From Candidatus Campbellbacteria bacterium (GTDB lineage Bacteria > Patescibacteriota > Minisyncoccia > Phycocordibacterales > EsbW-18), in the NCBI GenBank assembly GCA_016699465.1, contig CP064977.1, forward strand, positions 74,096-138,095: DNA of 64,000 bases. The letters are read 5' to 3'. The position numbers and the translations under genes are program-made. The notes under the pieces are model-generated. The model was given only the letters and a program-made list of their open reading frames with translations, was not told the origin of the DNA and made no database searches. Within the stretch, counting starts at the first letter, position 1, and every line of letters starts with the position of its first letter. Shown here piece after piece: positions 3,393-58,984 of this stretch.

Positions 3393-3809
3393 TTAGGCAA
3401 TTAGCCCCTTTTCTTTTGGGAGTACGATATAAAGAATAATGAATGTAAGTAGTGTAAGTTGGATTGAAGGCGTGAGACCGACATGTATGAACGGAAGAAG
3501 GGGCATAGCTTTTGTATATGCCCAGCGTCCTGTGTTGAGTGCATATAGTTCAAGTGCGATTGCAAACATAAATGCAACAAGTGTTGGAAGTACGAGCCTC
3601 CATTTTAATCGTGAGAAAAAAAGAGAGGGAAGTGCGATGAGTGTGATGAAGGTTGCGTCAAAAAGTGCTGCGTGCAAAAGAATGGAGTCTGTTATGGCTC
3701 CACCTTGATAGTGCACATACAACACAGAGTGTGCGTATTCCCACATAAGGTTGAGAAAAAAGGCGAGGAGGAAAATAAGAGGAAAGCGAGCGAGGTGTCT
3801 CATGTTCAT
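3393..3809 (-). CDS. hypothetical polytopic membrane protein
   Basis: 138 aa with four hydrophobic helices; no family recognised. Confidence 0.55.
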   Translation of the reverse strand: MNMRHLARFPLIFLLAFFLNLMWEYAHSVLYVHYQGGAITDSILLHAALFDATFITLIALPSLFFSRLKWRLVLPTLVAFMFAIALELYALNTGRWAYTKAMPLLPFIHVGLTPSIQLTLLTFIILYIVLPKEKGLIA

Positions 3810-3886
3810 AGTATATGTTCAAAATATTTTTTATTAAGAGACACCGTAGGGTATACAATACCACCACAGAAGTTGCTCTGTGGTGG

Positions 3887-4609
3887 TCACAAGATGGCAT
3901 TACGCCGTAGACGAAACCCTCTCCGTTGAAGATTTCTCTGAACCTGAGAGATTTCTTCGTGAGGAAGAACCATCATAACGGGGAACCGCACTTCTTGAGT
4001 GGTGAAAAGATCAAGTTCCATCGCGACGGTTATTTTTCCAGAGAGTGTTCCGAGTATGCTCGGCGCGAAGTTAAGTACTCGGAATCCTGCAATTGGATGT
4101 TCACCAAAAATTGGTGCAAACGTTTTGCACGGCAGGTCAATGGTTTCCATTCCAAGGTGTCCGAGGATACTTTTTTTCGAAAGAGGTCTCGTTTCTCGCC
4201 AGTCCTTCACAACGGAGAAATCGACCAAGAGGCACCATAACGTGTGTTCCGCAAGGAAACGTTGGACAGCCACTTCTTCTGAGTGTGCTGCAAGCTCTGT
4301 TTGTCGTTTACCATCGCGTGTTTGCCGACGATTTTCATACGAAAACAAAGCGTACCAGATTCGCCTAAATGGGAAACTGTTTAATCTTGCGTACTTTTCG
4401 ATTTGGTCCACAGAGAGTCGGAATCCATATGGGCTACGAAACCCCGAGGCTTTCACTTCGATTGATGTTTCTGACCGCCACAGACAGACGTCTCCGTTTG
4501 TGTCTTGTGTCAGATTTCCACCAAATATGTTATGCGCGAGTCGTTCGTAAAAGTTGCCGACTATGGTTTGTTTGTGTCCGAGAACAAAGGTCTCACCTGT
4601 GTCGCTCAT
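3887..4609 (-). CDS. hypothetical protein with possible PD-(D/E)xK nuclease-like motif
   Basis: 240 aa; GAGAGG SD 5 nt before ATG at 4609; motif GDVCLWRSETSIEVK fits D...ExK; GC content (about 48%) higher than flanking host genes. Confidence 0.5.
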   Translation of the reverse strand: MSDTGETFVLGHKQTIVGNFYERLAHNIFGGNLTQDTNGDVCLWRSETSIEVKASGFRSPYGFRLSVDQIEKYARLNSFPFRRIWYALFSYENRRQTRDGKRQTELAAHSEEVAVQRFLAEHTLWCLLVDFSVVKDWRETRPLSKKSILGHLGMETIDLPCKTFAPIFGEHPIAGFRVLNFAPSILGTLSGKITVAMELDLFTTQEVRFPVMMVLPHEEISQVQRNLQRRGFRLRRNAIL

Positions 4610-25229: not shown

Positions 25230-26177
25230 ATGAGCTATAAAAGTAAAAAACAAAAAAATACGCTCAGAAATCGCATTGGTAATAAGATGCGAACATTTAG
25301 AATTGTTCTTTCAAGACTCGCACAGAACGTGCGGTCTCAGCTCAAAGGTCGAAAGGAAAGCAAAATGTCCCTACCACAGACGAGAAAGGTCATGGCATTT
25401 CTTCGAGATGAGGCTCGGCGTATTCGACCCAACAACAAGAGGATTGACGAATGGGTCGATGAACTTCTCGAGCAGTGTGCTCGAGACGGAAAGCCGGTAG
25501 ACGTACTCACCCAGTGGTGTCTGTCGAAAGATCTCGAAACTCGGAAAATACAACAAGGAGGTCGACTTTCACCCCTTCCTTCCGAGAAGAAGATGATCCT
25601 TGAGGCAATTCCGCGCATTATTGATGTTTTCACCAGTAATGGCTTTCGAGTCAACTGGTGGTTCACATTCAACAAGGCGTTTGTGGACGAGGGGCGGGTG
25701 TCTGATGCATTGGTCGTCGAGTATATCAATCTCATCAGTGCCCTCGTTTCCCAAAATGAGGCAGTGCGCGAAAGTGGTATTCTTATCAACTGGGAGGAAG
25801 AAGTGCTCCAAGGTCGACAACAGCCAAATAGAGAAGTTATGGAAGATTTCTTTCGGTACATTCCGAGGGGCGCGTTTGATATCGAGATGAAAAATCTCCT
25901 TCGACGCGTCCAGAAGTACCCCAACTTTTCAAAGTCAGTTGCCGAGCTCGAGGTAGAAAAGAAGTACAACATTGCTTGTGAGGTGGGGGAGGGGAAGTTT
26001 CTCCTCGGCGAGCAATCGCCGTTTTCCAAGGGAGAGTTTCTCCTCATTCCATTTGAATTTCCGGAGCGGTACGGATTTTTCGAGATACTAGCTCCAGGGT
26101 TTCAACGTCGTATTGCTGCAGTACTTAAACCATACCCATGGCGCATAGATGCCGACGATCTGGTGTATGAATCGTAG
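25230..26177 (+). CDS. hypothetical protein (cassette 1), start uncertain
   Basis: ORF immediately after tRNA-His; the track start at 25152 lies inside the tRNA; GC rises to above 55%. Confidence 0.5.
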   Translation: MSYKSKKQKNTLRNRIGNKMRTFRIVLSRLAQNVRSQLKGRKESKMSLPQTRKVMAFLRDEARRIRPNNKRIDEWVDELLEQCARDGKPVDVLTQWCLSKDLETRKIQQGGRLSPLPSEKKMILEAIPRIIDVFTSNGFRVNWWFTFNKAFVDEGRVSDALVVEYINLISALVSQNEAVRESGILINWEEEVLQGRQQPNREVMEDFFRYIPRGAFDIEMKNLLRRVQKYPNFSKSVAELEVEKKYNIACEVGEGKFLLGEQSPFSKGEFLLIPFEFPERYGFFEILAPGFQRRIAAVLKPYPWRIDADDLVYES

Positions 26178-26192
26178 CGGTTCGCACACATA

Positions 26193-26226
26193 AGGCCCGC
26201 TTCGTTTAACACGAAGCGGGCCTTTC
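26193..26226 (+). terminator. terminator hairpin
   Basis: aaggcccgcttcg-tttaaca-cgaagcgggcctt 13-bp stem. Confidence 0.55.
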
Positions 26227-26231
26227 TCTAA

Positions 26232-26268
26232 TAGTATTCAACTAGTTTTTGGATTGCATTCATAAATT
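26232..26268 (-). pseudogene. recR 5'-end remnant (11 codons MNAIQKLVEYY then stop)
   Basis: Reverse complement atgaatgcaatccaaaaactagttgaatac closely matches the true recR start atgaacgcgatacaaaaactagctgaatac; its ATG overlaps the TGA of the 108-aa gene (ATGA). Confidence 0.6.
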
Positions 26269-26586
26269 TTCAAGTGGATAGACGTCGAAGGCAACTTCTT
26301 CGTATGGGTGTACTGATTTCATCGCCGAAATAATATCAAGCATTTTCTCTCTTTCGCAGACAAATTCAATTCGTTCTTCTGGTACAGATTCTAATGTACC
26401 AACTTCACCTATTGCTGGACGCGCTCCGTCTTCAGGTAGAAATCGTCCGGTTCCTTTTGATGAAAAGGTACAGAATGAATAGTTGCCAATTTTTCCTGCG
26501 CCTGCTTTACCTACAGCATCACGAACAACATCGGCGTGTGATTCAGGAACGAACACAACGATTTTTAGTTTTTTTGTTTGAGACAT
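26260..26586 (-). CDS. small alpha/beta protein; C-terminus HPYEEVAFDVYPLE is CutA/PII-like (weak)
   Basis: 108-aa ORF, GC-rich; translationally coupled (ATGA) to the recR-like remnant. Confidence 0.5.
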   Translation of the reverse strand: MSQTKKLKIVVFVPESHADVVRDAVGKAGAGKIGNYSFCTFSSKGTGRFLPEDGARPAIGEVGTLESVPEERIEFVCEREKMLDIISAMKSVHPYEEVAFDVYPLENL

Positions 26587-26632
26587 GCGACTATTTTAGC
26601 AGATTTTTAGGGCTATTTGGGGTAACTTGACA
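26587..26632 (+). repeat. cassette-array repeat, copy 1 (46 bp promoter-proximal part ending in TTGACA)
   Basis: gcgactattttagcagatttttagggctatttggggtaacttgaca; same sequence at 28286-28332 and 29046-29091. Confidence 0.85.
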
Positions 26633-26656
26633 AGTGGTAATAATATATAGTATAAT
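26627..26656 (+). promoter_or_regulatory. sigma70-like promoter TTGACA-18-TATAAT for cassette 2
   Basis: The -35 box is contributed by the repeat; the -10 box by unique cassette sequence. Confidence 0.55.
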
Positions 26657-26719
26657 ATCTAACAGAAGCTCATCACCAGATCAGCCGTAATGGTTGGTCA
26701 AAACCGAAGGAGAAAAATC

Positions 26720-27256
26720 GTGAAGAAGATTTTCTCATTTGACGCCGAGACCAACGGACTCTGGGGACAGGCGTGGGCGATCGGCGCCCTCGTCTACGAC
26801 GAGAACGGCGTTGAAATTGCCCGATTCGTCGGCCGTCTGCCGGACTCGGCGGTGACCGACTCGTGGAGCCGGGAGAACACTCTGCCCCAGGTGCAGGGAA
26901 TCCCGGTGACCCATGAGGACTACGACTCGCTTCTCGCCTCGTTCGCCGACTTCTACAAGGCGAACAAGGACGGAGCCGACGTCGTCGTGCACATGGGGTA
27001 CATCGTGGAGGCGAAGATTCTTCGTGATCTCCACGATCGCGGCCTTATCGGCGACTGGGAGGGGCCGTACCCGCTCTACGACGTCAGCGGAAACCTGCAG
27101 GCCGCTGGTGCGGACCCCACCTCGGTGGACAAGTTCGCGGACGAGCGAGGTCTTCAGGTGGGAGTGGGTACCGACATCGTCGGAGGAACCCACAATCCGC
27201 TCTGGGATTCTGCCGCCGCGGCGGCAGTCTACCGCTACTTGGTCTACGACAAGTAG
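26720..27256 (+). CDS. DEDDh-family 3'-5' exonuclease (DnaQ/RNase T-like)
   Basis: AAGGAG SD 7 nt before GTG 26720; motif I FDAETNGL, motif III HNPLWDSAAAAAVY (H-x4-D); GC about 62%. Confidence 0.8.
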   Translation: MKKIFSFDAETNGLWGQAWAIGALVYDENGVEIARFVGRLPDSAVTDSWSRENTLPQVQGIPVTHEDYDSLLASFADFYKANKDGADVVVHMGYIVEAKILRDLHDRGLIGDWEGPYPLYDVSGNLQAAGADPTSVDKFADERGLQVGVGTDIVGGTHNPLWDSAAAAAVYRYLVYDK

Positions 27257-27296
27257 CAACGTGGGAGTTTGAGAGGACTCCGTCAACAAAACCTCT

Positions 27297-27346
27297 CCCA
27301 TCGTAGAATGTGTGTTCTACCCGATGAGTCCAAAAGGACGAAATGG
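27297..27346 (+). ncRNA. hammerhead-ribozyme-like motif (type III topology) with U4-to-C deviation; speculative
   Basis: cccaUC | GUAGAA-ugugug-UUCUAC | CCGAUGA | GUCC-aaaa-GGAC | GAAA | UGG: 14 of 15 core positions and all three stems present. Stem III is only 4 bp and competes with an upstream hairpin (gugggag/cucccau). Confidence 0.2.
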
Positions 27347-27364
27347 TTTGTTCTTTGAGAAAAT

Positions 27365-27420
27365 TCTTTCGGTTATCTCAGTGTTTGTGATTTGAAGAGA
27401 GCGTTGAGATAACCGAAAGA
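27365..27420. promoter_or_regulatory. perfect 16-bp-stem hairpin immediately upstream of the SD of the 27435 gene
   Basis: tctttcggttatctca ... tgagataaccgaaaga, exact reverse complements; A-run after, T-rich before. Confidence 0.5.
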
Positions 27421-27434
27421 AAAAAGGAGATACT

Positions 27435-28148
27435 ATGCAAAGGAAAAAAATTGAAGTGAAGAAAGGGAAGTACGCCTTTCTTGTTGACGGACTCAGAAAA
27501 GAGCCCATCAACTTTCTGCGGCATGAGCCGCTGAATGAGATTGAAATCTTACTTGGCAAGGGAGCCAAGAGTGTCGAGTACTACGGCACTTTCGGGGGAG
27601 AGGACGGGGTTCTCCTTCTAGTAGTTGAAGTGTCGTCGGATGGACCAGTTATCACAGAAGGTGGTAATCTCTTCGCGTTCTGCAAAGGGTGCGGAGAACT
27701 CATTCGGAGCGAGCACGGGTGTGTCAGAGGGTCTGATGAACCGTGCAAGGAGAAGTTCCGGTCGGGAACAAGCTTTCTCACCGCCCCGCTGGATCACCCT
27801 TGTGCCGCTCTCTACCACGCGGCACAGGACGGAAAGTTCTTGGTCGGGATTGACAACCCGATGCGAGTTCCAGATGTGCCGAGTTGGGTCTTGATTCAAA
27901 ACAGAAAGACCCACGGCGGTGGTCACCATTATCACTGGTTTGGTCGCTCTGGACTTAGTCCAGAGGGTCTCGCAGACTTCTTTCGGAGGCATCCTGCCAG
28001 TGACGCCGAAGTATCTCTCGAAGGAGAGGTTGTGGTGGTCAAATCATCACAACTCGGACCGTGGATTGGTTCGAGTGGACGTTGGGCGAAGGCCTACCAA
28101 CGTCTTGGAATTCGAGTTCAGTTTCGACCAGTTGTAGCCACCGCCTGA
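27435..28148 (+). CDS. hypothetical protein (cassette 2, second gene) with CxxC/His clusters
   Basis: AAGGAGA SD; 237 aa; GC about 58%; no family recognised. Confidence 0.55.
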   Translation: MQRKKIEVKKGKYAFLVDGLRKEPINFLRHEPLNEIEILLGKGAKSVEYYGTFGGEDGVLLLVVEVSSDGPVITEGGNLFAFCKGCGELIRSEHGCVRGSDEPCKEKFRSGTSFLTAPLDHPCAALYHAAQDGKFLVGIDNPMRVPDVPSWVLIQNRKTHGGGHHYHWFGRSGLSPEGLADFFRRHPASDAEVSLEGEVVVVKSSQLGPWIGSSGRWAKAYQRLGIRVQFRPVVATA

Positions 28149-28332
28149 TGAAACACGGGAGACCGCGCTTTCATCAGGCGGTTTTCTTATTTTTATTTTT
28201 TGAATCTACTCCACTATTCGCGCGAATTAGAGAATGGTTTTTTGGAGCTTTTGAAAGTATTCAGTTAGTTTCTGAATTGTATGCATGCGACTATTTTAGC
28301 AGATTTTTAGGGCTATTTGGGGTAACTTGACA
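28141..28332 (+). repeat. cassette-array repeat, copy 2 (terminator hairpin + recR-5'-like segment + TTGACA)
   Basis: About 93% identical over about 190 bp to 28903-29091; hairpin ccgcctgatgaaa...tttcatcaggcgg plus T-run acts as terminator for the upstream gene. Confidence 0.85.
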
Positions 28333-28408
28333 AAACAAATTATTTTTGCTAAAAAACAGATAGAACACAACATACGCTACTTGGCGTATGAACTTTTGGA
28401 GAAAAATC

Positions 28409-28885
28409 ATGAAACTGTTCCGAGGTGTGCTTATCGTCTTGACGGTAGCGTTGGTTTTCCAGGCCCTTCTCACTGTCTACAAGCATCACAAAAAGGCGGA
28501 GCAGCTGGAGAGGTTTGTGGCCGCAGAAGCGTTGGACGCGGCCGCCTCACTTGCAAACGCTCTGGAAGCCACTTATTACCAGGACGGAGGACTCGATTCT
28601 GTTGTGACCACGTGTGCCTCATCGGAGATCACCTGGACGAAGACGACACACGGGGAGTTCACAACCCGATGCAACGTCACCGGAGATTTCTACGACCCGG
28701 ACACGTACAAGACGATTACGGACGGAAAAGACACAATCCTTCCAGTGAGTCTTTTCACGAGAGTCGACGAGAGGATGCTCGTTCGACTCAAGGATGGTTG
28801 GAGGTTGCGGAGCGCCACCCTTACAGTGCTCGCGGAAGACGCCCGAGGTCGGGTGCTTGCCAAGGCGAGCAAACACCTTCGGTAG
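28409..28885 (+). CDS. hypothetical secreted/membrane-anchored protein (cassette 3)
   Basis: GGAG SD 7 nt before ATG 28409; signal/TM LFRGVLIVLTVALVF; GC-rich. Confidence 0.5.
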   Translation: MKLFRGVLIVLTVALVFQALLTVYKHHKKAEQLERFVAAEALDAAASLANALEATYYQDGGLDSVVTTCASSEITWTKTTHGEFTTRCNVTGDFYDPDTYKTITDGKDTILPVSLFTRVDERMLVRLKDGWRLRSATLTVLAEDARGRVLAKASKHLR

Positions 28886-28902
28886 TGGGCATTCAATCTC
28901 TG

Positions 28903-29091
28903 CCGCCTGACAGACACGGAAAACCGCGCTTTGTCTGGCGGTTTTCTTATTTTTATTTTTTGAATCTACTCCACTATTCGCGCGAATTAGAGAATGGTTT
29001 TTTGGAACTTTTGAAAGTATTCAGCTAGTTTCTGGATTGTATGCATGTGACTATTTTAGCAGATTTTTAGGGCTCTTTGGGGTAACTTGAC
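28903..29091 (+). repeat. cassette-array repeat, copy 3
   Basis: Hairpin ccgcctgacagac...gtctgtctggcgg carries compensatory substitutions relative to copy 2; ends in TTGACG -35 with TATACT -10 17 nt downstream. Confidence 0.85.
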
Positions 29092-29164
29092 GTGGGACGA
29101 TTTATGACTTATACTTTTTACGGAACCGAACGAAAGAACAACTTCGACTCAGGAGGCCGAGACA

Positions 29165-29494
29165 ATGGCGACTCAAGGGGTGGTAAGTGTCGTGAAGAAC
29201 GGGGTGGTGGTGCTCAAGGTTGTCGCAGGCTGCGATGGTTACAACGCGGCCCTGCTCGGCAACACGATTCGGGGAATGGGAATCATTCCAGATGCGGAGA
29301 ACGCCTACGACCTGGCGTTCAAGCTCCGTTTCGGCGAGGTCGAGTGCCTCGTCGCGATGGACCAGAGGACCGAGGTGTTTCGGGGTCACGACGAGATCGA
29401 CTCGACGAGGTATCGAGCCACCTTCAGCGACCCGCGCTTCAACCCAAGGTGGGAGCAGGGAACCGCCGACTTCGTGGAGGTGGTCGAGTTCTAG
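29165..29494 (+). CDS. hypothetical protein (cassette 4), 109 aa
   Basis: GGAGG SD; GC about 62%; antisense ORFs rejected. Confidence 0.5.
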   Translation: MATQGVVSVVKNGVVVLKVVAGCDGYNAALLGNTIRGMGIIPDAENAYDLAFKLRFGEVECLVAMDQRTEVFRGHDEIDSTRYRATFSDPRFNPRWEQGTADFVEVVEF

Positions 29495-29528
29495 AATCAA
29501 CACGATGACCCAGAACGAGCTGAACTAT

Positions 29529-29660
29529 ACCGTCTGACAAACACGGAAAACCGCGCTTTCATCAGGCGGTTTTCTTATTTTTATTTTTGAATCTACTCCA
29601 CTATTCGCGCGAATTAGAGAATGGTTGCCGGGGAATTTCTGAAAATATTCAGTTGTCTTA
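29529..29660 (+). repeat. cassette-array repeat, copy 4 (degenerate)
   Basis: Terminator hairpin plus ttgaatctactccactattcgcgcgaattagagaatggtt shared with copies 2 and 3, then a diverged recR-like segment (gaatattttcagaaattcc). Confidence 0.7.
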
Positions 29661-29732
29661 ATTAAATTTTACAAAAAGAAACCGCCTCGTCTGGGAACGG
29701 GACGGTTCCATGTGACGGGGCGGGGGCAGGTG

Positions 29733-30212
29733 CTACTGCGGGGTTGGGAGCGAAATTGGCGCAGTTCGGTTGACCTGCATCGTGCGGCGCATCCACCACT
29801 CGTCCAGGATGATCTGGACCATACCGCGCTCTCGCTTGCCCGCGACCATTTGCGCTATGGGTGCGAGTGTTCGAATGTCGCGGTGTTCGCGCTGGCCGTC
29901 GGACCACTCGATGAGTACCTCTGTGAACGACGGGTTGTGCTCGTAGCGATCCACGACCCAGAAAATCTCATTGTAATCGGTGATGCAGGTGGCGGGAAGC
30001 TCGACGGTTTTGAGCAGCTCCAGCATCTGCTCTTCGTGCACCTTGCGCTCTGTCGCGGTTCGCGCCTCTTCGGCGTCGGCGGACTTGGAACCAGACGTGT
30101 CCCCGATGAGCATGAAAAGGCTGAAGACGATGATGCATCCGAGGATGAACCCGAAAACGAGGTTCATCCGTTTCGCTGACATGAACTCTCTCTCAGTAAA
30201 GAGGCGCTCCAT
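29733..30212 (-). CDS. hypothetical membrane-anchored protein, GC-rich
   Basis: Own promoter TTGACT-17-TATCAT at 30258-30286 (minus strand) and GAGGAGG SD. Confidence 0.5.
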   Translation of the reverse strand: MERLFTEREFMSAKRMNLVFGFILGCIIVFSLFMLIGDTSGSKSADAEEARTATERKVHEEQMLELLKTVELPATCITDYNEIFWVVDRYEHNPSFTEVLIEWSDGQREHRDIRTLAPIAQMVAGKRERGMVQIILDEWWMRRTMQVNRTAPISLPTPQ

Positions 30213-56018: not shown

Positions 56019-57299
56019 TTAGCTTATAGAAATGTGAGAAAGTAAGTCACCCGCGGATACGCGCTCTTGTTTCATAGTATCGCGATCACGAATGGTAAGT
56101 GTTCCATCTTCAAGTGTTTGGTGATCAACAGTAACACACACAGGTGTTCCAATCTCATCTTGTCGGCGGTAGCGCTTTCCTATTGAACCGGATTCGTCGT
56201 ACAACACGCGTGCACTCTTGGAGAGTTCTTTGTATATTTCTTGTGCTTTTTCAGACAACCCATCTTTCTTCATTAAAGGCAATACAGCCACTTGGTAGGG
56301 CGCAATTGCTGCTGGTAGACCCAACACCACTCGAACATCATCTTCAACAGGTTCCTCTCGGTATGCATCACACAAGACGGCAAGAACAGTTCTATCAACG
56401 CCAAGAGAAGGTTCAATAACATGTGGAATAAAGCGTTTTTTTGCTTCCTCATCAAAATAACTCAAATCAACACTCGAGTGTTCAGCGTGAGCTCCGAGGT
56501 CGTAGTCGGTGCGGTATGCAAGTCCGTAAAGTTCTTTCTGACCAAATGGATAGTCAAATTCAAAGTCAATGGTGCGTTTTGAATAGAATGCAAGATCTTC
56601 AGGAGCGATTTCGTGTTCGTGGACATGTTCACTTTTGAGTCCGATTTCAGCGGTCCATGCAAGCATCTGCTTTCTCCAATCTTCAAATGCTGCTTCCCAA
56701 TACTCAGGTGCAACAAAGTACTCCACTTCCATTTGCTCAAATTCACGCACACGGAACAAAAAGTCGCGCGGAGCAATTTCATTGCGGAATGCTTTTCCAA
56801 TTTGTCCCAATCCAAACGGCAACTTAGGATGCAGGGAGTCCATCACGTTCTTGAAGTTTACAAACATTCCTCCAGCAGTTTCAGGACGAAGATATACATC
56901 AGATGAAGAGTCGTCATCAGCACCAATGGCTGTCTTAAACATCATGTTAAATTGCTTCACATCACCAAGTGCTCCCCCACAGTCGGGACATTTCTTTGCG
57001 TCATCAAGCTGATCAGCACGAAATCGGTGTTTACACTTTGTACACGCAACGAGTGGGTCTGAAAATCCAGACACGTGTCCAGACGCTACCCACACTTTTG
57101 GATTCATTAAAATAGCAGCATCCACACCGTACATATCATTTCGGTCATGAATAAATCGTTTCCACCAGAGTGCTTTGATGTTGTTTTTGAGCTCTACACC
57201 TAAAGGTCCGTAATCAAATGTTCCTGCAAGACCGCCGTAAATTTCGGAACCTTGGAAGATAAAGCCGCGCCGTTTGCACAGCGATACTATCTTTTCCAT
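56019..57299 (-). CDS. glyQS: glycine--tRNA ligase (alpha2 dimeric type)
   Basis: Class-II GlyRS N-terminus IVSLCKRRGFIFQGSEIYGG; start at MEKIV with GAAGG SD. Confidence 0.9.
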   Translation of the reverse strand: MEKIVSLCKRRGFIFQGSEIYGGLAGTFDYGPLGVELKNNIKALWWKRFIHDRNDMYGVDAAILMNPKVWVASGHVSGFSDPLVACTKCKHRFRADQLDDAKKCPDCGGALGDVKQFNMMFKTAIGADDDSSSDVYLRPETAGGMFVNFKNVMDSLHPKLPFGLGQIGKAFRNEIAPRDFLFRVREFEQMEVEYFVAPEYWEAAFEDWRKQMLAWTAEIGLKSEHVHEHEIAPEDLAFYSKRTIDFEFDYPFGQKELYGLAYRTDYDLGAHAEHSSVDLSYFDEEAKKRFIPHVIEPSLGVDRTVLAVLCDAYREEPVEDDVRVVLGLPAAIAPYQVAVLPLMKKDGLSEKAQEIYKELSKSARVLYDESGSIGKRYRRQDEIGTPVCVTVDHQTLEDGTLTIRDRDTMKQERVSAGDLLSHISIS

Positions 57300-57535
57300 C
57301 ACGTTAGAGCCTTCGTCTTTGGTCATCCCATTAGAGATAGGAAATGGAATACATTTCCGTATCGGTTAGATTTTTAAAACAAAACTAGATATATTCGTTG
57401 CCCTGTTTCCCATTCGAATCCAAAACTGTGGAATCTCTAACGGGACCAGTACAAAAATAATACCATACGGAACGTAAAAAGCCCGCCATGGAAATGGTGG
57501 GCTCGAGTTGCGAAAAGAACATCTGAGAAAGTTGG

Positions 57536-57838
57536 ACGAGACGAGGGCTTGGGGTCGGTACTAAGGACCGTTGGGACACAATCGCGGTGGTGGTGTGCCC
57601 GTAGTTACGGCCGATGCGGTCGATTTATCGAACTATACTTCCCGGTACGACCCCTTGAACCGTGCCAGAGGATTACGTAAGCCACACACAGGCACCTGTA
57701 CCTGCTGTGCTCTTGATCGACGCAATCATGATCTGTCGCTCTCTTATTTTGTCGTGGGAGCTCCCTCCTCACGATATAGCGACCTAGCGCCCTGCGCAGG
57801 GTTTTTCCACCTAATGGACCCCCTTCGCCCTCGTCTCG
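57536..57838. other. 303-bp GC-rich ORF-free element bounded by a perfect 14-bp inverted repeat (gacgagacgagggc / gccctcgtctcgtc); structured ncRNA or MITE-like remnant
   Basis: Long-range complementary ends; second nested helix ggggtcggtac/gtac-gacccc; many internal palindromes; terminator-like ccctgcgcaggg+TTTTT at 57795-57811; GC about 58%. Confidence 0.45.
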
Positions 57839-57904
57839 TCCGCATGTACCTTACCAAAACGTACTTTTTTGGTCAATTGACTTTTCTACTATATGTAGCA
57901 TACA

Positions 57905-57957
57905 AAAAGCCCCGCCAACGCACGGTGGTGCGTTAGACGGGGCGAAGGTGGCGTTTT
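57905..57957 (-). terminator. terminator for the 57958 gene
   Basis: Nested palindrome gccccg...aacgcac-ggtg-gtgcgtt...cggggc followed by a T-run on the minus strand. Confidence 0.55.
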
Positions 57958-58242
57958 CTAGGCGGTGTTGATGTCCTGAATGAATTCGCTGAATGTCACC
58001 CATTCTTGAACTGCACATCGGAGCTTTTCACCAGTGAGGCGTACGTCCCCGAGTTCCATGCAGTTTCTCCAAAAACAACAGTGGACGATACTATTTTTGT
58101 CGTCAAAACGAATCCGTAGTGCCCACCACGAACCAAGAGTCATAAGGTTTCCATTACGGAAAATACCAAATTGACGACCTCTCTTGAAATTAAAAAGATG
58201 AATCTCTCGGGCAACGCCAGTGCCATTCGGTTGCTTCTTCAT
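57958..58242 (-). CDS. hypothetical protein
   Basis: 94-aa ORF; no family recognised. Confidence 0.4.
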   Translation of the reverse strand: MKKQPNGTGVAREIHLFNFKRGRQFGIFRNGNLMTLGSWWALRIRFDDKNSIVHCCFWRNCMELGDVRLTGEKLRCAVQEWVTFSEFIQDINTA

Positions 58243-58349
58243 GCATCCCCCCTCTCAAAAAAGAACATTAGGACTCTACGCAAACTATACACTTACTATC
58301 AACATAAATCTATTGAATACGTTGAGTCTAAAAGCCTGGTACGCGTTTA

Positions 58350-58378
58350 TTGACAATGTTTTAAGTAACGGGTAGTAT
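58350..58378 (+). promoter_or_regulatory. sigma70-like promoter TTGACA-17-TAGTAT driving the ncRNA
   Basis: Consensus -35, 17-nt spacer, good -10. Confidence 0.55.
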
Positions 58379-58385
58379 CTTCTCC

Positions 58386-58644
58386 GGTTCAGGCAACGTC
58401 TGGCGAAATCGAGGGTTCGAACCCCTCGGGAGAAACCTCGGAGTGAGTAAATTTGTTTCTCTGGGCGTACTGATAGCTATCCCAAGATGCGTAGAATAGG
58501 TGGGAGACTGCGACATTCGATCTCCGGGTCGAATTGAGTCGATGTGAAATACCACCCAATCTGGGAGACAGAGCGTTCCTCCGAACGCTGCTATCAGTTG
58601 CTTGAACCACTCGGGTCCACGATTACGCATCGCGGACCTTTTTT
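58386..58644 (+). ncRNA. unclassified structured ncRNA of about 260 nt (promoter to intrinsic terminator)
   Basis: No ORF. 12-bp P1 helix pairs the 5' and 3' ends (GGUUCAGGCAAC at 58386 with GUUGCUUGAACC at 58597). Adjacent 8-bp P2 helix (CUGAUAGC with GCUAUCAG). T-loop-like hairpin GAGGGUUCGAACCCCUC. Terminator ggtccacgat-tacgc-atcgcggacc+TTTTTT at 58614-58644. Confidence 0.55.
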
Positions 58645-58984
58645 ATACATGCAACAAACAGTCACATGGTTTTTCTTTGAGAATTATCCTCTGTTCTTTG
58701 ATAGTGTTGATGAACACTTTTTGACTACCAGAACCAGTTGCTAATCGTTTATCAAGTGGTGTGTGGTGTTGGTATCCTCGGCGAGAGAATTCTTTTACCA
58801 ACGCTTCATGGCGTGTGTAGAGCGCCTTTTTCTTTCCTACCCAACGCAGTGTTTCTGGATGATGTGCGTACCCACCCTTCCCTTTGTGTTTTGTGAGAAT
58901 GTTCCATAGACCATGAAGCTCGCGATGTTCGGCGAGCAAATGTTTTCTGCATAAATGTTGTGGATGTATGTCCCAAACGCGCAT
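58643..58984 (-). CDS. pyrimidine-dimer DNA glycosylase (T4 endonuclease V / DenV family)
   Basis: N-terminus MRVWDIHPQHLCRKHLLAEHRELHGLW parallels T4 DenV MTRINLxxxxELxDQHLLAEHRELPRIF. Confidence 0.75.
   Translation of the reverse strand: MRVWDIHPQHLCRKHLLAEHRELHGLWNILTKHKGKGGYAHHPETLRWVGKKKALYTRHEALVKEFSRRGYQHHTPLDKRLATGSGSQKVFINTIKEQRIILKEKPCDCLLHV

Follow-up and report, generated by a model that had tools for sequence, protein, structure and literature searches.

The window analysed here, 64,000 nt of a Candidatus Campbellbacteria genome (contig CP064977.1, positions 74,096 to 138,095 of the forward strand), contains a predicted small RNA gene, RNA-B, on its plus strand among genes that all lie on the minus strand. 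These genes encode TspO, DUF2177, a 150-aa protein, Pyr_excise (58643-58984), ORF94 (57958-58242), GlyRS (56019-57326) and TrpRS, and the best relatives of the neighbouring proteins are from metagenome-assembled genomes of Paceibacterota/Parcubacteria. RNA-B occupies the gap between Pyr_excise and ORF94, with promoter, RNA and terminator together spanning 58350-58644. A syntenic copy of RNA-B with about 93 % identity is present in L092, a related metagenomic genome.

An earlier note on this stretch had described a structured non-coding RNA of no known class, and no Rfam family claims the whole of RNA-B. The consensus promoter reported there was recovered (Table 1); both hexamers are unchanged in L092, with two substitutions in the spacer between them. 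Transcription is predicted to start at G58386, 8 nt past the -10 hexamer, which is also the first base of helix P1. The canonical intrinsic terminator was likewise borne out; a simple terminator scan missed it, an internal A.C mismatch being the probable cause. A core of about 223 nt plus the terminator gives a transcript of ~260 nt, and beyond the terminator lies a convergent gene, with no plus-strand gene downstream. The folding energy z-score is -4.9 for the RNA-B strand and -5.4, which is equally good, for the opposite strand; because both strands fold well, the strand was assigned from the promoter, the terminator, the G.U pairs and the T-loop. The description of the transcript as free of open reading frames (ORFs) held only in part. 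Mechanical ORFs of 89 aa (minus strand) and 66 aa (plus strand) overlap RNA-B, but a search of 5.8 billion proteins with the 89-aa product found no homolog, returning only the product itself, and in L092 a 1-nt deletion falls inside this ORF and no gene is called there. RNA-B is well supported as a real, independently transcribed, structured non-coding small RNA gene, as predicted from its sequence; its expression, ligand and physiological role are what we infer below.

The Rfam search proposed in the earlier note found no family for the RNA as a whole, but matched its core to the L1 stalk of 23S rRNA. The resemblance was discovered through a two-sequence RNA-B covariance model, which matched a 70-nt L1-stalk-like stretch in an unrelated locus of the Candidate Phyla Radiation (CPR), L076. 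In Rfam, positions 2127-2214 of the 2925 positions of the LSU_rRNA_bacteria (large subunit, LSU) model match RNA-B with E=2.8e-12 and 43 bits, against a gathering score of 50 bits, and the match appears only with a 136-nt query; no LSU match was returned by the whole-window scan at gathering score or by a search of the 501 nt around RNA-B at E≤10. The alignment tracks consensus H76, H77 and H78 and stops at H76. With nhmmer the stalk region aligns to about 2085-2174 of the Escherichia coli 23S rRNA (E=4e-7), the E. coli stretch compared being a 100 % match to annotated 23S rRNA. A blastn comparison of RNA-B with E. coli genomes gave no match, the similarity being too short. A two-block signature, ATAGGTGGGAG-N(25-50)-TGAAATACCACCC, is identical to E. 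coli 23S over its 24 nt; it has a single occurrence in the window and none in 100 shuffles.

A multiple alignment of RNA-B with 23S sequences and the other isolated stalks shows that it retains loop A, H77, the GA that follows, the H78 base (GAC/GUC) and loop B. Every upper-case (highly conserved) nucleotide of the Rfam LSU consensus in the two T-loops and the H77/H78 junction is present, and no substitution between the window and L092 falls on a highly conserved stalk-core position of that consensus. The elements of an interdigitated T-loop module are all there, namely H76, H77, H78 and loops A and B (GUAGNAUA..., UGAAAUA). We take 58491 and 58547, in an E. coli numbering that we assigned ourselves, to be the equivalents of G2112 and A2169, and both nucleotides are kept. 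In ribosome structures G2112 and A2169 form the platform that stacks on the tRNA elbow; through this face the ribosomal L1 stalk stacks against the T-loop/D-loop elbow of E-site tRNA, and the uL1 site lies on it too. RNA-B thus shares with the 23S stalk the sequence GUAGNAUAGGUGGGAG...UGAAAUACCACCC, the GGUGG/CCACC of H77, the layout of H78 and both interdigitated T-loops. It differs in that the copy is an 87-nt island within a 260-nt transcript with its own promoter and terminator, against an rRNA of ~2.9 kb, and in that a tRNA-like arm is fused to it. Its flanks P1, P2 and P6 have no detectable similarity to 23S, and the Rfam match is confined to H76-H78. Loop-A position 2116 also varies: the compared 23S sequences all have G there, the window has A and L092 has U. 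RNA-B was rejected as a 23S rRNA gene, given the short extent of the model match and its score below the gathering threshold. The defining feature of RNA-B, overlooked in the earlier note, is this 87-nt core, which on sequence evidence is a copy of the 23S rRNA L1 stalk, and the RNA as a whole is very probably a chimeric small RNA in which a tRNA-like arm is joined to an L1 stalk. To our knowledge, the only regulatory RNAs known to imitate rRNA are short operator hairpins of ribosomal protein mRNAs. In RNA-B an entire functional rRNA module, the tRNA-elbow-binding stalk with both T-loops, appears to have been copied into an independent small RNA gene and joined to a tRNA-like arm, which would show how a new small RNA gene can arise from pieces of rRNA and tRNA genes.

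The tRNA-like part is in the 5' third, where the segment at 58402-58437 reads UGGCGA-AAUC-GAGGG-UUCGAAC-CCCUC-GGGAGAA-A-CC, in the order of an anticodon-stem-like 3' strand, a 4-nt variable region, a T arm, an acceptor-like 3' strand, a discriminator and CC. In viral contigs the pattern GGCGAAA-N4-GGGTTCGAACCC matches tRNA-Glu genes in their 3' halves, and the weak Rfam matches of RNA-B go to tRNA-derived models. The T-loop-like hairpin of the earlier note was found again. Its stem is invariant in L092, where the loop reads UUCAAAU and is changed at positions 57 and 60 only, so that the plus-strand T-loop consensus is kept; on the minus strand C56 would be lost. The GAGAAAC/GUUUCUC helix, also described before, has no mismatch in the window, but in L092 its top pair is broken. 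RNAalifold favours, in its place, the pairing of GAAAU (58405-09) with GUUUC (58455-59), which extends helix P1b. One contig with very few ORFs carries a tRNA-Glu-like sequence with a 6-nt anticodon loop that ARAGORN does not call (L104:1700-1800, plus strand); its trailer, UCUCGGAGUGAGAUAAAUUU, resembles the loop of the RNA-B acceptor-like hairpin, which may be chance.

The pairing of the two ends (P1) and the second long-range helix (P2) proposed in the earlier note were both recovered where it had placed them. P1 joins the first transcribed nucleotides to the last ones ahead of the terminator and so clamps the whole of RNA-B. It can be extended by one C-G pair, GGUUCAGGCAA(C) at 58386-58397 with (G)UUGCUUGAACC at 58597-58608, and in L092 all 11 of its pairs are kept, the sole G.U (pair 7) having become A-U. 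P2 has 8 of 8 pairs in the window and 7 of 8 in L092, with one A.G mismatch. P2, the stalk and P6 form a three-way junction with the same topology as H75/H76/H79. In the structural alignment of the window with L092, 97.9 % of cells are paired.

Table 1. Features of RNA-B in the window, and isolated L1 stalks in viral contigs (MFE, minimum free energy)
Feature	Position	Strand	Evidence or remark
Promoter, sigma-70 type, TTGACA-17-TAGTAT	58350-58378	+	10/12 match; top promoter-like site in a 2-kb scan
P1, 5' strand, GGUUCAGGCAA	58386-58396	+	begins at the predicted transcription start; pairs with 58598-58608
P1b, 5' strand, CGUCUG (tentative)	58397-58402	+	pairs with 58462-58467 (MFE fold, RNAalifold)
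tRNA 3'-half-like segment	58402-58437	+	tRNA-Glu pattern matches; weak Rfam matches to tRNA-derived models
T hairpin, 7-bp stem UCGAGGG/CCCUCGG	58409-58429	+	T-loop UUCGAAC at 58416-58422
Acceptor-like hairpin GAGAAAC/GUUUCUC, 18-nt loop	58430-58461	+	abuts the T stem directly; alternative folds
P1b, 3' strand, UGGGCG (tentative)	58462-58467	+	alternatively a GG-containing D-loop analogue
P2, 5' strand, CUGAUAGC	58470-58477	+	at the H75 position, stalk base; pairs with 58590-58597
L1-stalk homolog (23S rRNA H76-H78), 87 nt	58480-58566	+	Rfam LSU match, nhmmer, two-block signature, alignments
H76-like helix	58480-89/58557-66	+	one pair broken in L092
Loop A (first T-loop), CGUAGAAUA	58490-58498	+	alignment with 23S
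H77, GGUGG/CCACC	58499-503/58552-56	+	alignment with 23S
H78, UCCG tetraloop	58506-58540	+	3-bp base, internal loop, 8-bp stem, tetraloop
Loop B (second T-loop), GAUGUGAAAUA	58541-58551	+	alignment with 23S
P6 hairpin, AGCGUUC-CUCC-GAACGCU	58572-58589	+	at the H79 position
P2, 3' strand, GCUAUCAG	58590-58597	+	pairs with 58470-58477
P1, 3' strand, UUGCUUGAACC	58598-58608	+	runs on directly from the P2 3' strand
Intrinsic terminator, hairpin GGUCCACGAU/AUCGCGGACC, then U6	58614-58638, then 58639-58644	+	MFE fold; L092 100 % identical
Isolated viral stalk, L108	2335-2436	-	signature scan
Isolated viral stalk, L111	2478-2580	+	signature scan
Isolated viral stalk, L116	1223-1326	+	signature scan
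Isolated viral stalk, L109	4700-4812	-	signature scan
Isolated viral stalk, L117	366-477	-	signature scan
Isolated viral stalk, L118	1-92	-	signature scan

Known RNA families were considered and rejected. Rfam searches of the whole window (gathering score) and of 501 nt and 1151 nt (E≤10) gave only chance matches, and none of the models for RNase P, tmRNA, the signal recognition particle, 6S, T-box, Y RNA, tRNA or group I intron matched RNA-B. The resemblance to RNase P RNA suggested in the earlier note was not upheld: neither RNaseP_bact_a nor RNaseP_bact_b matches at gathering score or at E≤10, the P4 sequences GGAAAGUCC and ACAGAANNCGGCUUA are absent, and the ACAGAG-P2-P1 layout that had been read as RNase-P-like is merely the junction ahead of hairpin P6. 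The same note had set tmRNA aside and the present data agree, for standard and permuted forms alike, as neither possible acceptor register has G3:U70 and neither ARAGORN nor Rfam gives a match. ARAGORN found four tRNAs and no tmRNA in the window, and neither a tRNA nor a tmRNA at RNA-B. Patescibacteria tRNA genes carry group I introns at position 35/36 (PMC13011429). A tRNA or intron-containing tRNA was rejected, as only a 3'-half-like segment is present and RF00005, Intron_gpI and ARAGORN are without a match; so was a permuted, split, group I intron-containing or minus-strand tRNA, as no register gives a cloverleaf on either strand. An att-site remnant of a tRNA gene finds no matching tRNA within the window, and a T-box riboswitch has neither an RF00230 match nor a plus-strand gene downstream.

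Over 224 nt, the window and L092 copies of RNA-B differ by 16 substitutions and one indel. Two changes are double-compensatory, both C-G to U-A, one in P6 and one in the CGAC/GUCG pairing of the H78-like arm. Three single changes preserve pairing, namely the G.U to A-U in P1, a U.G to U-A in P1b and an A-U to G.U in P6. When substitutions were placed at random in a simulation, the probability of two or more double-compensatory changes was 0.013. The covariation evidence for RNA-B is nevertheless thin: in the control for the covariation tool, 124 of 500 shuffles reached the observed values, with only two sequences available.

The reading that we favour, with a probability of roughly 40 %, is that RNA-B is an L1-stalk decoy acting off the ribosome, where it would present the stalk's ligand-binding face to a tRNA-type elbow. 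The elbow could be that of a free tRNA, for which RNA-B would serve as decoy, sponge or sensor; alternatively, the T arm of RNA-B itself could dock in cis, giving a self-contained imitation of the contact between E-site tRNA and L1 stalk. A tRNA-type elbow is considered the most likely ligand because Paceibacteria and the 'OD1-L1' Parcubacteria are reported to keep H78 and to lack rplA. Paceibacteria keep H78 and lack rplA and der (PMC12641178), and 'OD1-L1' is a large subgroup of Parcubacteria without uL1 (PMC5220378, PMC9297842). The subgroup without an anti-Shine-Dalgarno motif overlaps most uL1-lacking lineages (PMC9297842). No rplA gene was found in the window or in any fetched locus, the stretches covered. 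Of the 61 long ORFs in the window, 10 have a Shine-Dalgarno-like motif upstream, against a 10 % background, and the source genome appears to make little use of Shine-Dalgarno-led initiation. The scarcity of these motifs, together with the placement of Candidatus Campbellbacteria in the Parcubacteria group, gives indirect support for membership of the uL1-lacking group. Two questions become testable, namely how uL1-less CPR ribosomes handle E-site tRNA and whether copies of the L1 stalk act on tRNA off the ribosome.

Several observations weigh against a tRNA-elbow decoy, including the shuffle control described above. The tRNA-like arm lacks a D arm and a canonical elbow (the G19-C56 face) is not evident, and the fold of the 5' domain is ambiguous, with competing pairings. 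Three pairs are broken in L092, at the top of the acceptor-like stem, in P2 and in the H76-like helix. RNA-B is also less conserved than the spacers that flank it: identity between the window and L092 is 97-100 % for the flanking spacers, 92.4 % for RNA-B, 92.7 % for RNA-A (a second RNA, described below), 87 % at the nucleotide level for ORF94 and 86.8 % for Pyr_excise, with four-fold degenerate sites 60-83 % identical. Because the spacers are more conserved and the history of the block is unusual, no claim of purifying selection on RNA-B is made from substitution rates. In the compared region (window 57327-58650), 149 nt upstream of GlyRS are 100 % identical to L092, and sharp divergence begins with GlyRS directly after them. 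This suggests a recombination breakpoint at the start of GlyRS and an unusual pattern of change within the block.

The narrow distribution of RNA-B is a further point against this interpretation, as it was found in two closely related genomes only. The homolog in L092 was reached solely via the relatives of ORF94, which gave two syntenic loci. In the second, from the next relative, L093, ORF94 and RNA-A are present and RNA-B was not found at the syntenic site, its slot being filled by a tRNA gene and a 200-aa gene. At this position (L093:1962-2035, plus strand) ARAGORN calls a tRNA with an undetermined anticodon ('gc') that looks by eye like tRNA-Cys(GCA). Among 89 loci anchored on Pyr_excise and GlyRS, RNA-B was present only in the window's own contig; the same was true of the eight contigs encoding relatives of Pyr_excise, and 80 GlyRS-anchored genome loci yielded no RNA-B by blastn, nhmmer or covariance model search. 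Two pattern scans of metagenomes gave no RNA-B homolog either, the first returning nothing and the second four matches that were tRNA or tRNA-like sequences followed by a chance match. A blastn search of phages and plasmids gave no RNA-B match, and a viral scan for the T-loop followed by the L1 block gave one chance match.

Such a distribution would be expected of a young chimera with no specific function, in which illegitimate recombination within a variable intergenic hotspot fused fragments of rDNA and a tRNA gene; its promoter would be fortuitous or captured, and selection would not yet, or no longer, act on it. The different content of the L093 slot, the faster change of RNA-B than of the adjoining spacers, the three disrupted pairs and the truncation of the tRNA part, which is missing its anticodon and D arms, all fit this origin. 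It is nonetheless unlikely, since P1 (11-12 bp) and P2 (8 bp) are perfect helices with no detectable origin in 23S, P1 begins exactly at the predicted transcription start, and the consensus promoter and strong terminator are unchanged in L092. The two compensatory double changes, the absence of substitutions from the highly conserved stalk-core positions and the occurrence elsewhere of independent isolated stalks with compensatory changes of their own also speak against it.

Isolated L1 stalks were found in a second CPR locus and in viral contigs. In L076 (5610-5760, plus strand) the L33 gene and tRNA-Trp flank an isolated element that has a closing helix of its own and a hairpin resembling a terminator; an assembly gap follows. 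Its H77 is GGCUU/GAGCC, in which three pairs are compensatorily changed relative to GGUGG/CCACC. A scan of viral (IMG/VR) contigs with the two-block signature gave 13 loci. One (L119) holds most of a 23S gene, cut by the contig end, and three (L112, L107 and L110) have longer partial 23S-like stretches according to Rfam. L109 and L111 match the LSU model at gathering score over roughly positions 2129-2212 only, and the signature occurs with no LSU match at gathering score in L117 and L114 (near-identical to L109/L111), L108/L113/L115, L116 and L118. The stalk lies inside a tRNA array in L109 and L117, where a tRNA follows on the same strand after about 50 nt, and immediately upstream of a small ORF in L108/L113/L115 and L116. 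Between L108 and L111 there is a compensatory change in H76. A literature search gave no published description of stand-alone or viral isolated L1-stalk RNAs. RNA-B and the isolated stalks of L076 and the viral contigs may together represent an undescribed class of off-ribosome L1-stalk RNAs that capture tRNA elbows or elbow-like structures in trans, a proposal that we put forward tentatively and regard as doubtful. The viral stalks, some of them in tRNA arrays, suggest a broader phenomenon of which viruses may make use. If such a class exists, the interdigitated T-loop device, so far that of the ribosome, RNase P and T-boxes, would gain a fourth use, one derived by homology, and in a bacterium lacking uL1 an RNA of this class could be a tRNA sensor, a sponge or a stand-in for the E-site contact.

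Some of the same stalks could be read in favour of uL1, instead of tRNA, as the ligand, with RNA-B as a trans-encoded, high-affinity mimic of the uL1 site that titrates free uL1 and tunes uL1-dependent translational feedback. The isolated stalks of L108/L113/L115 and L116 sit directly upstream of ORFs, and that of L076 is in an rpmG/tRNA-Trp neighbourhood. Such a neighbourhood commonly precedes secE-nusG-rplKA. The H77/H78 junction of RNA-B, GGUGG-GA-GAC ... GUC ... AAAUA-CCACC, is intact, and uL1 recognizes the same motif on rRNA and mRNA, with L1-binding leaders being widespread (PMC3616713). RNA-B resembles these leaders, at the sequence level only, in imitating the 23S uL1 site off the ribosome; it would be a classical mimicry of rRNA for a ribosomal protein, with a separate small RNA in the place of an mRNA leader. 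A uL1 sponge is nevertheless improbable. Known L1 operators are stems of 37-41 nt with one G-A/A bulge in the rplK/rplA 5' untranslated region and need no T-loops (PMC3616713), whereas RNA-B is a full stalk with both T-loops, is not near rplK or rplA, neither of which is in the window, and has no downstream gene. It also comes from a clade reported to be without rplA and uL1 (PMC12641178, PMC5220378), and the near-absence of Shine-Dalgarno motifs fits the uL1-lacking subgroup (PMC9297842). The tRNA-like arm would be left unexplained. The weakest explanation, that RNA-B is a ribosome-associated piece that supplies or replaces the L1 stalk in trans in a fragmented 23S rRNA or docks via its tRNA-like arm, would suit a copy that spans the whole stalk on a junction of stalk-base topology and the lineage-specific loss of H78, uL1 and bL9 in CPR ribosomes (PMC9297842, PMC12641178), but it is very improbable, since Paceibacteria are reported to retain H78 in 23S rRNA (PMC12641178), all RNA-B helices are closed intramolecularly with nothing left to pair with the remainder of 23S, L093 is without RNA-B at the syntenic site, and the 2116 nucleotide invariant in the compared 23S sequences is replaced in both copies.

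Likenesses between RNA-B and known tRNA mimics or elbow binders are partial. The earlier note had offered a Y-RNA-like tRNA mimic as one possibility. YrlA RNAs have paired ends, a T hairpin and a closed acceptor-like stem in this order, and the motif GNCGAAN0-1G (PMC4201824). RNA-B shares the order, with a long helix formed by its ends coming first, a T stem-loop next and a closed acceptor-like stem-loop after that, and the GGCGAAA upstream of its T arm resembles the motif. The exact motif is missing, as GGCGAAAUC has G-N-C-G-A-A followed by A-U, not by N0-1 and G. RNA-B also has no D stem-loop, with P2 and a 128-nt L1-stalk domain in its place, and is about twice as long. A YrlA gene is expected to have a Ro60 (TROVE) gene within about 4 kb on the same strand; no Ro60/TROVE gene lies within about 5 kb of RNA-B, and none of the 30 window ORFs scanned matches TROVE.

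The L1 stalk, RNase P and T-box RNAs all bind the tRNA elbow through interdigitated T-loops, a device that RNase P and T-box RNAs use by convergence (PMC4810234). RNA-B has an interdigitated double T-loop module like the distal platform of T-box Stem I and J11/12-J12/13 of RNase P, but its module is the L1-stalk version by homology and not by convergence, and it is without a specifier loop, T-box sequence, catalytic P4 core or regulated downstream gene. With the tRNA-like domain of tmRNA and the permuted two-piece tmRNA it shares a T arm that comes first, then an acceptor-type stem, and no D stem; it differs in lacking G3:U70, an encoded CCA, a tag reading frame and pseudoknots.

Directly upstream of GlyRS, on the minus strand, lies RNA-A, a second ORF-free structured RNA of about 365 nt (57476-57842), with a promoter-like TTGACC-17-TAAGGT, its own terminator (57476-57505) and a folding z-score of -4.0. 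Its terminal helix of 15 bp is GGACGAGACGAGGGC/GCCCUCGUCUCGUCC, and it is conserved in L092 (93 %) and L093 (82 %). Neither an Rfam match nor any likeness to E. coli rRNA was found for RNA-A, and a T-box or rRNA-like identity had no support. Upstream of the closest GlyRS relative (77 % identity), L010 carries two tandem ORF-free elements (3443-3640 and 3673-3955, plus strand), each with a GGUGG/CCACC-rich terminal helix and a terminator; they have no Rfam match and no similarity to RNA-A or RNA-B. ORF94 has few relatives (four clusters among 1.84 billion representatives), is always found beside RNA-A and has invariant GSWW and F..N..E..D motifs. It belongs to no Pfam, PHROG or PADLOC family, and its AlphaFold2 model, which is weak (pLDDT 63), gave no fold match in the PDB. 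Relative to L092 it changes at a roughly neutral rate (82 % amino acid identity, 83 % at four-fold sites). Elsewhere in the window, the stretch at 26000-30200 has no Rfam match, its ORFs at 27435-28148 and 28327-29028 have no Pfam match, and it stands out by a G+C content of 0.51, against about 0.42, and by long ORFs that overlap on both strands.

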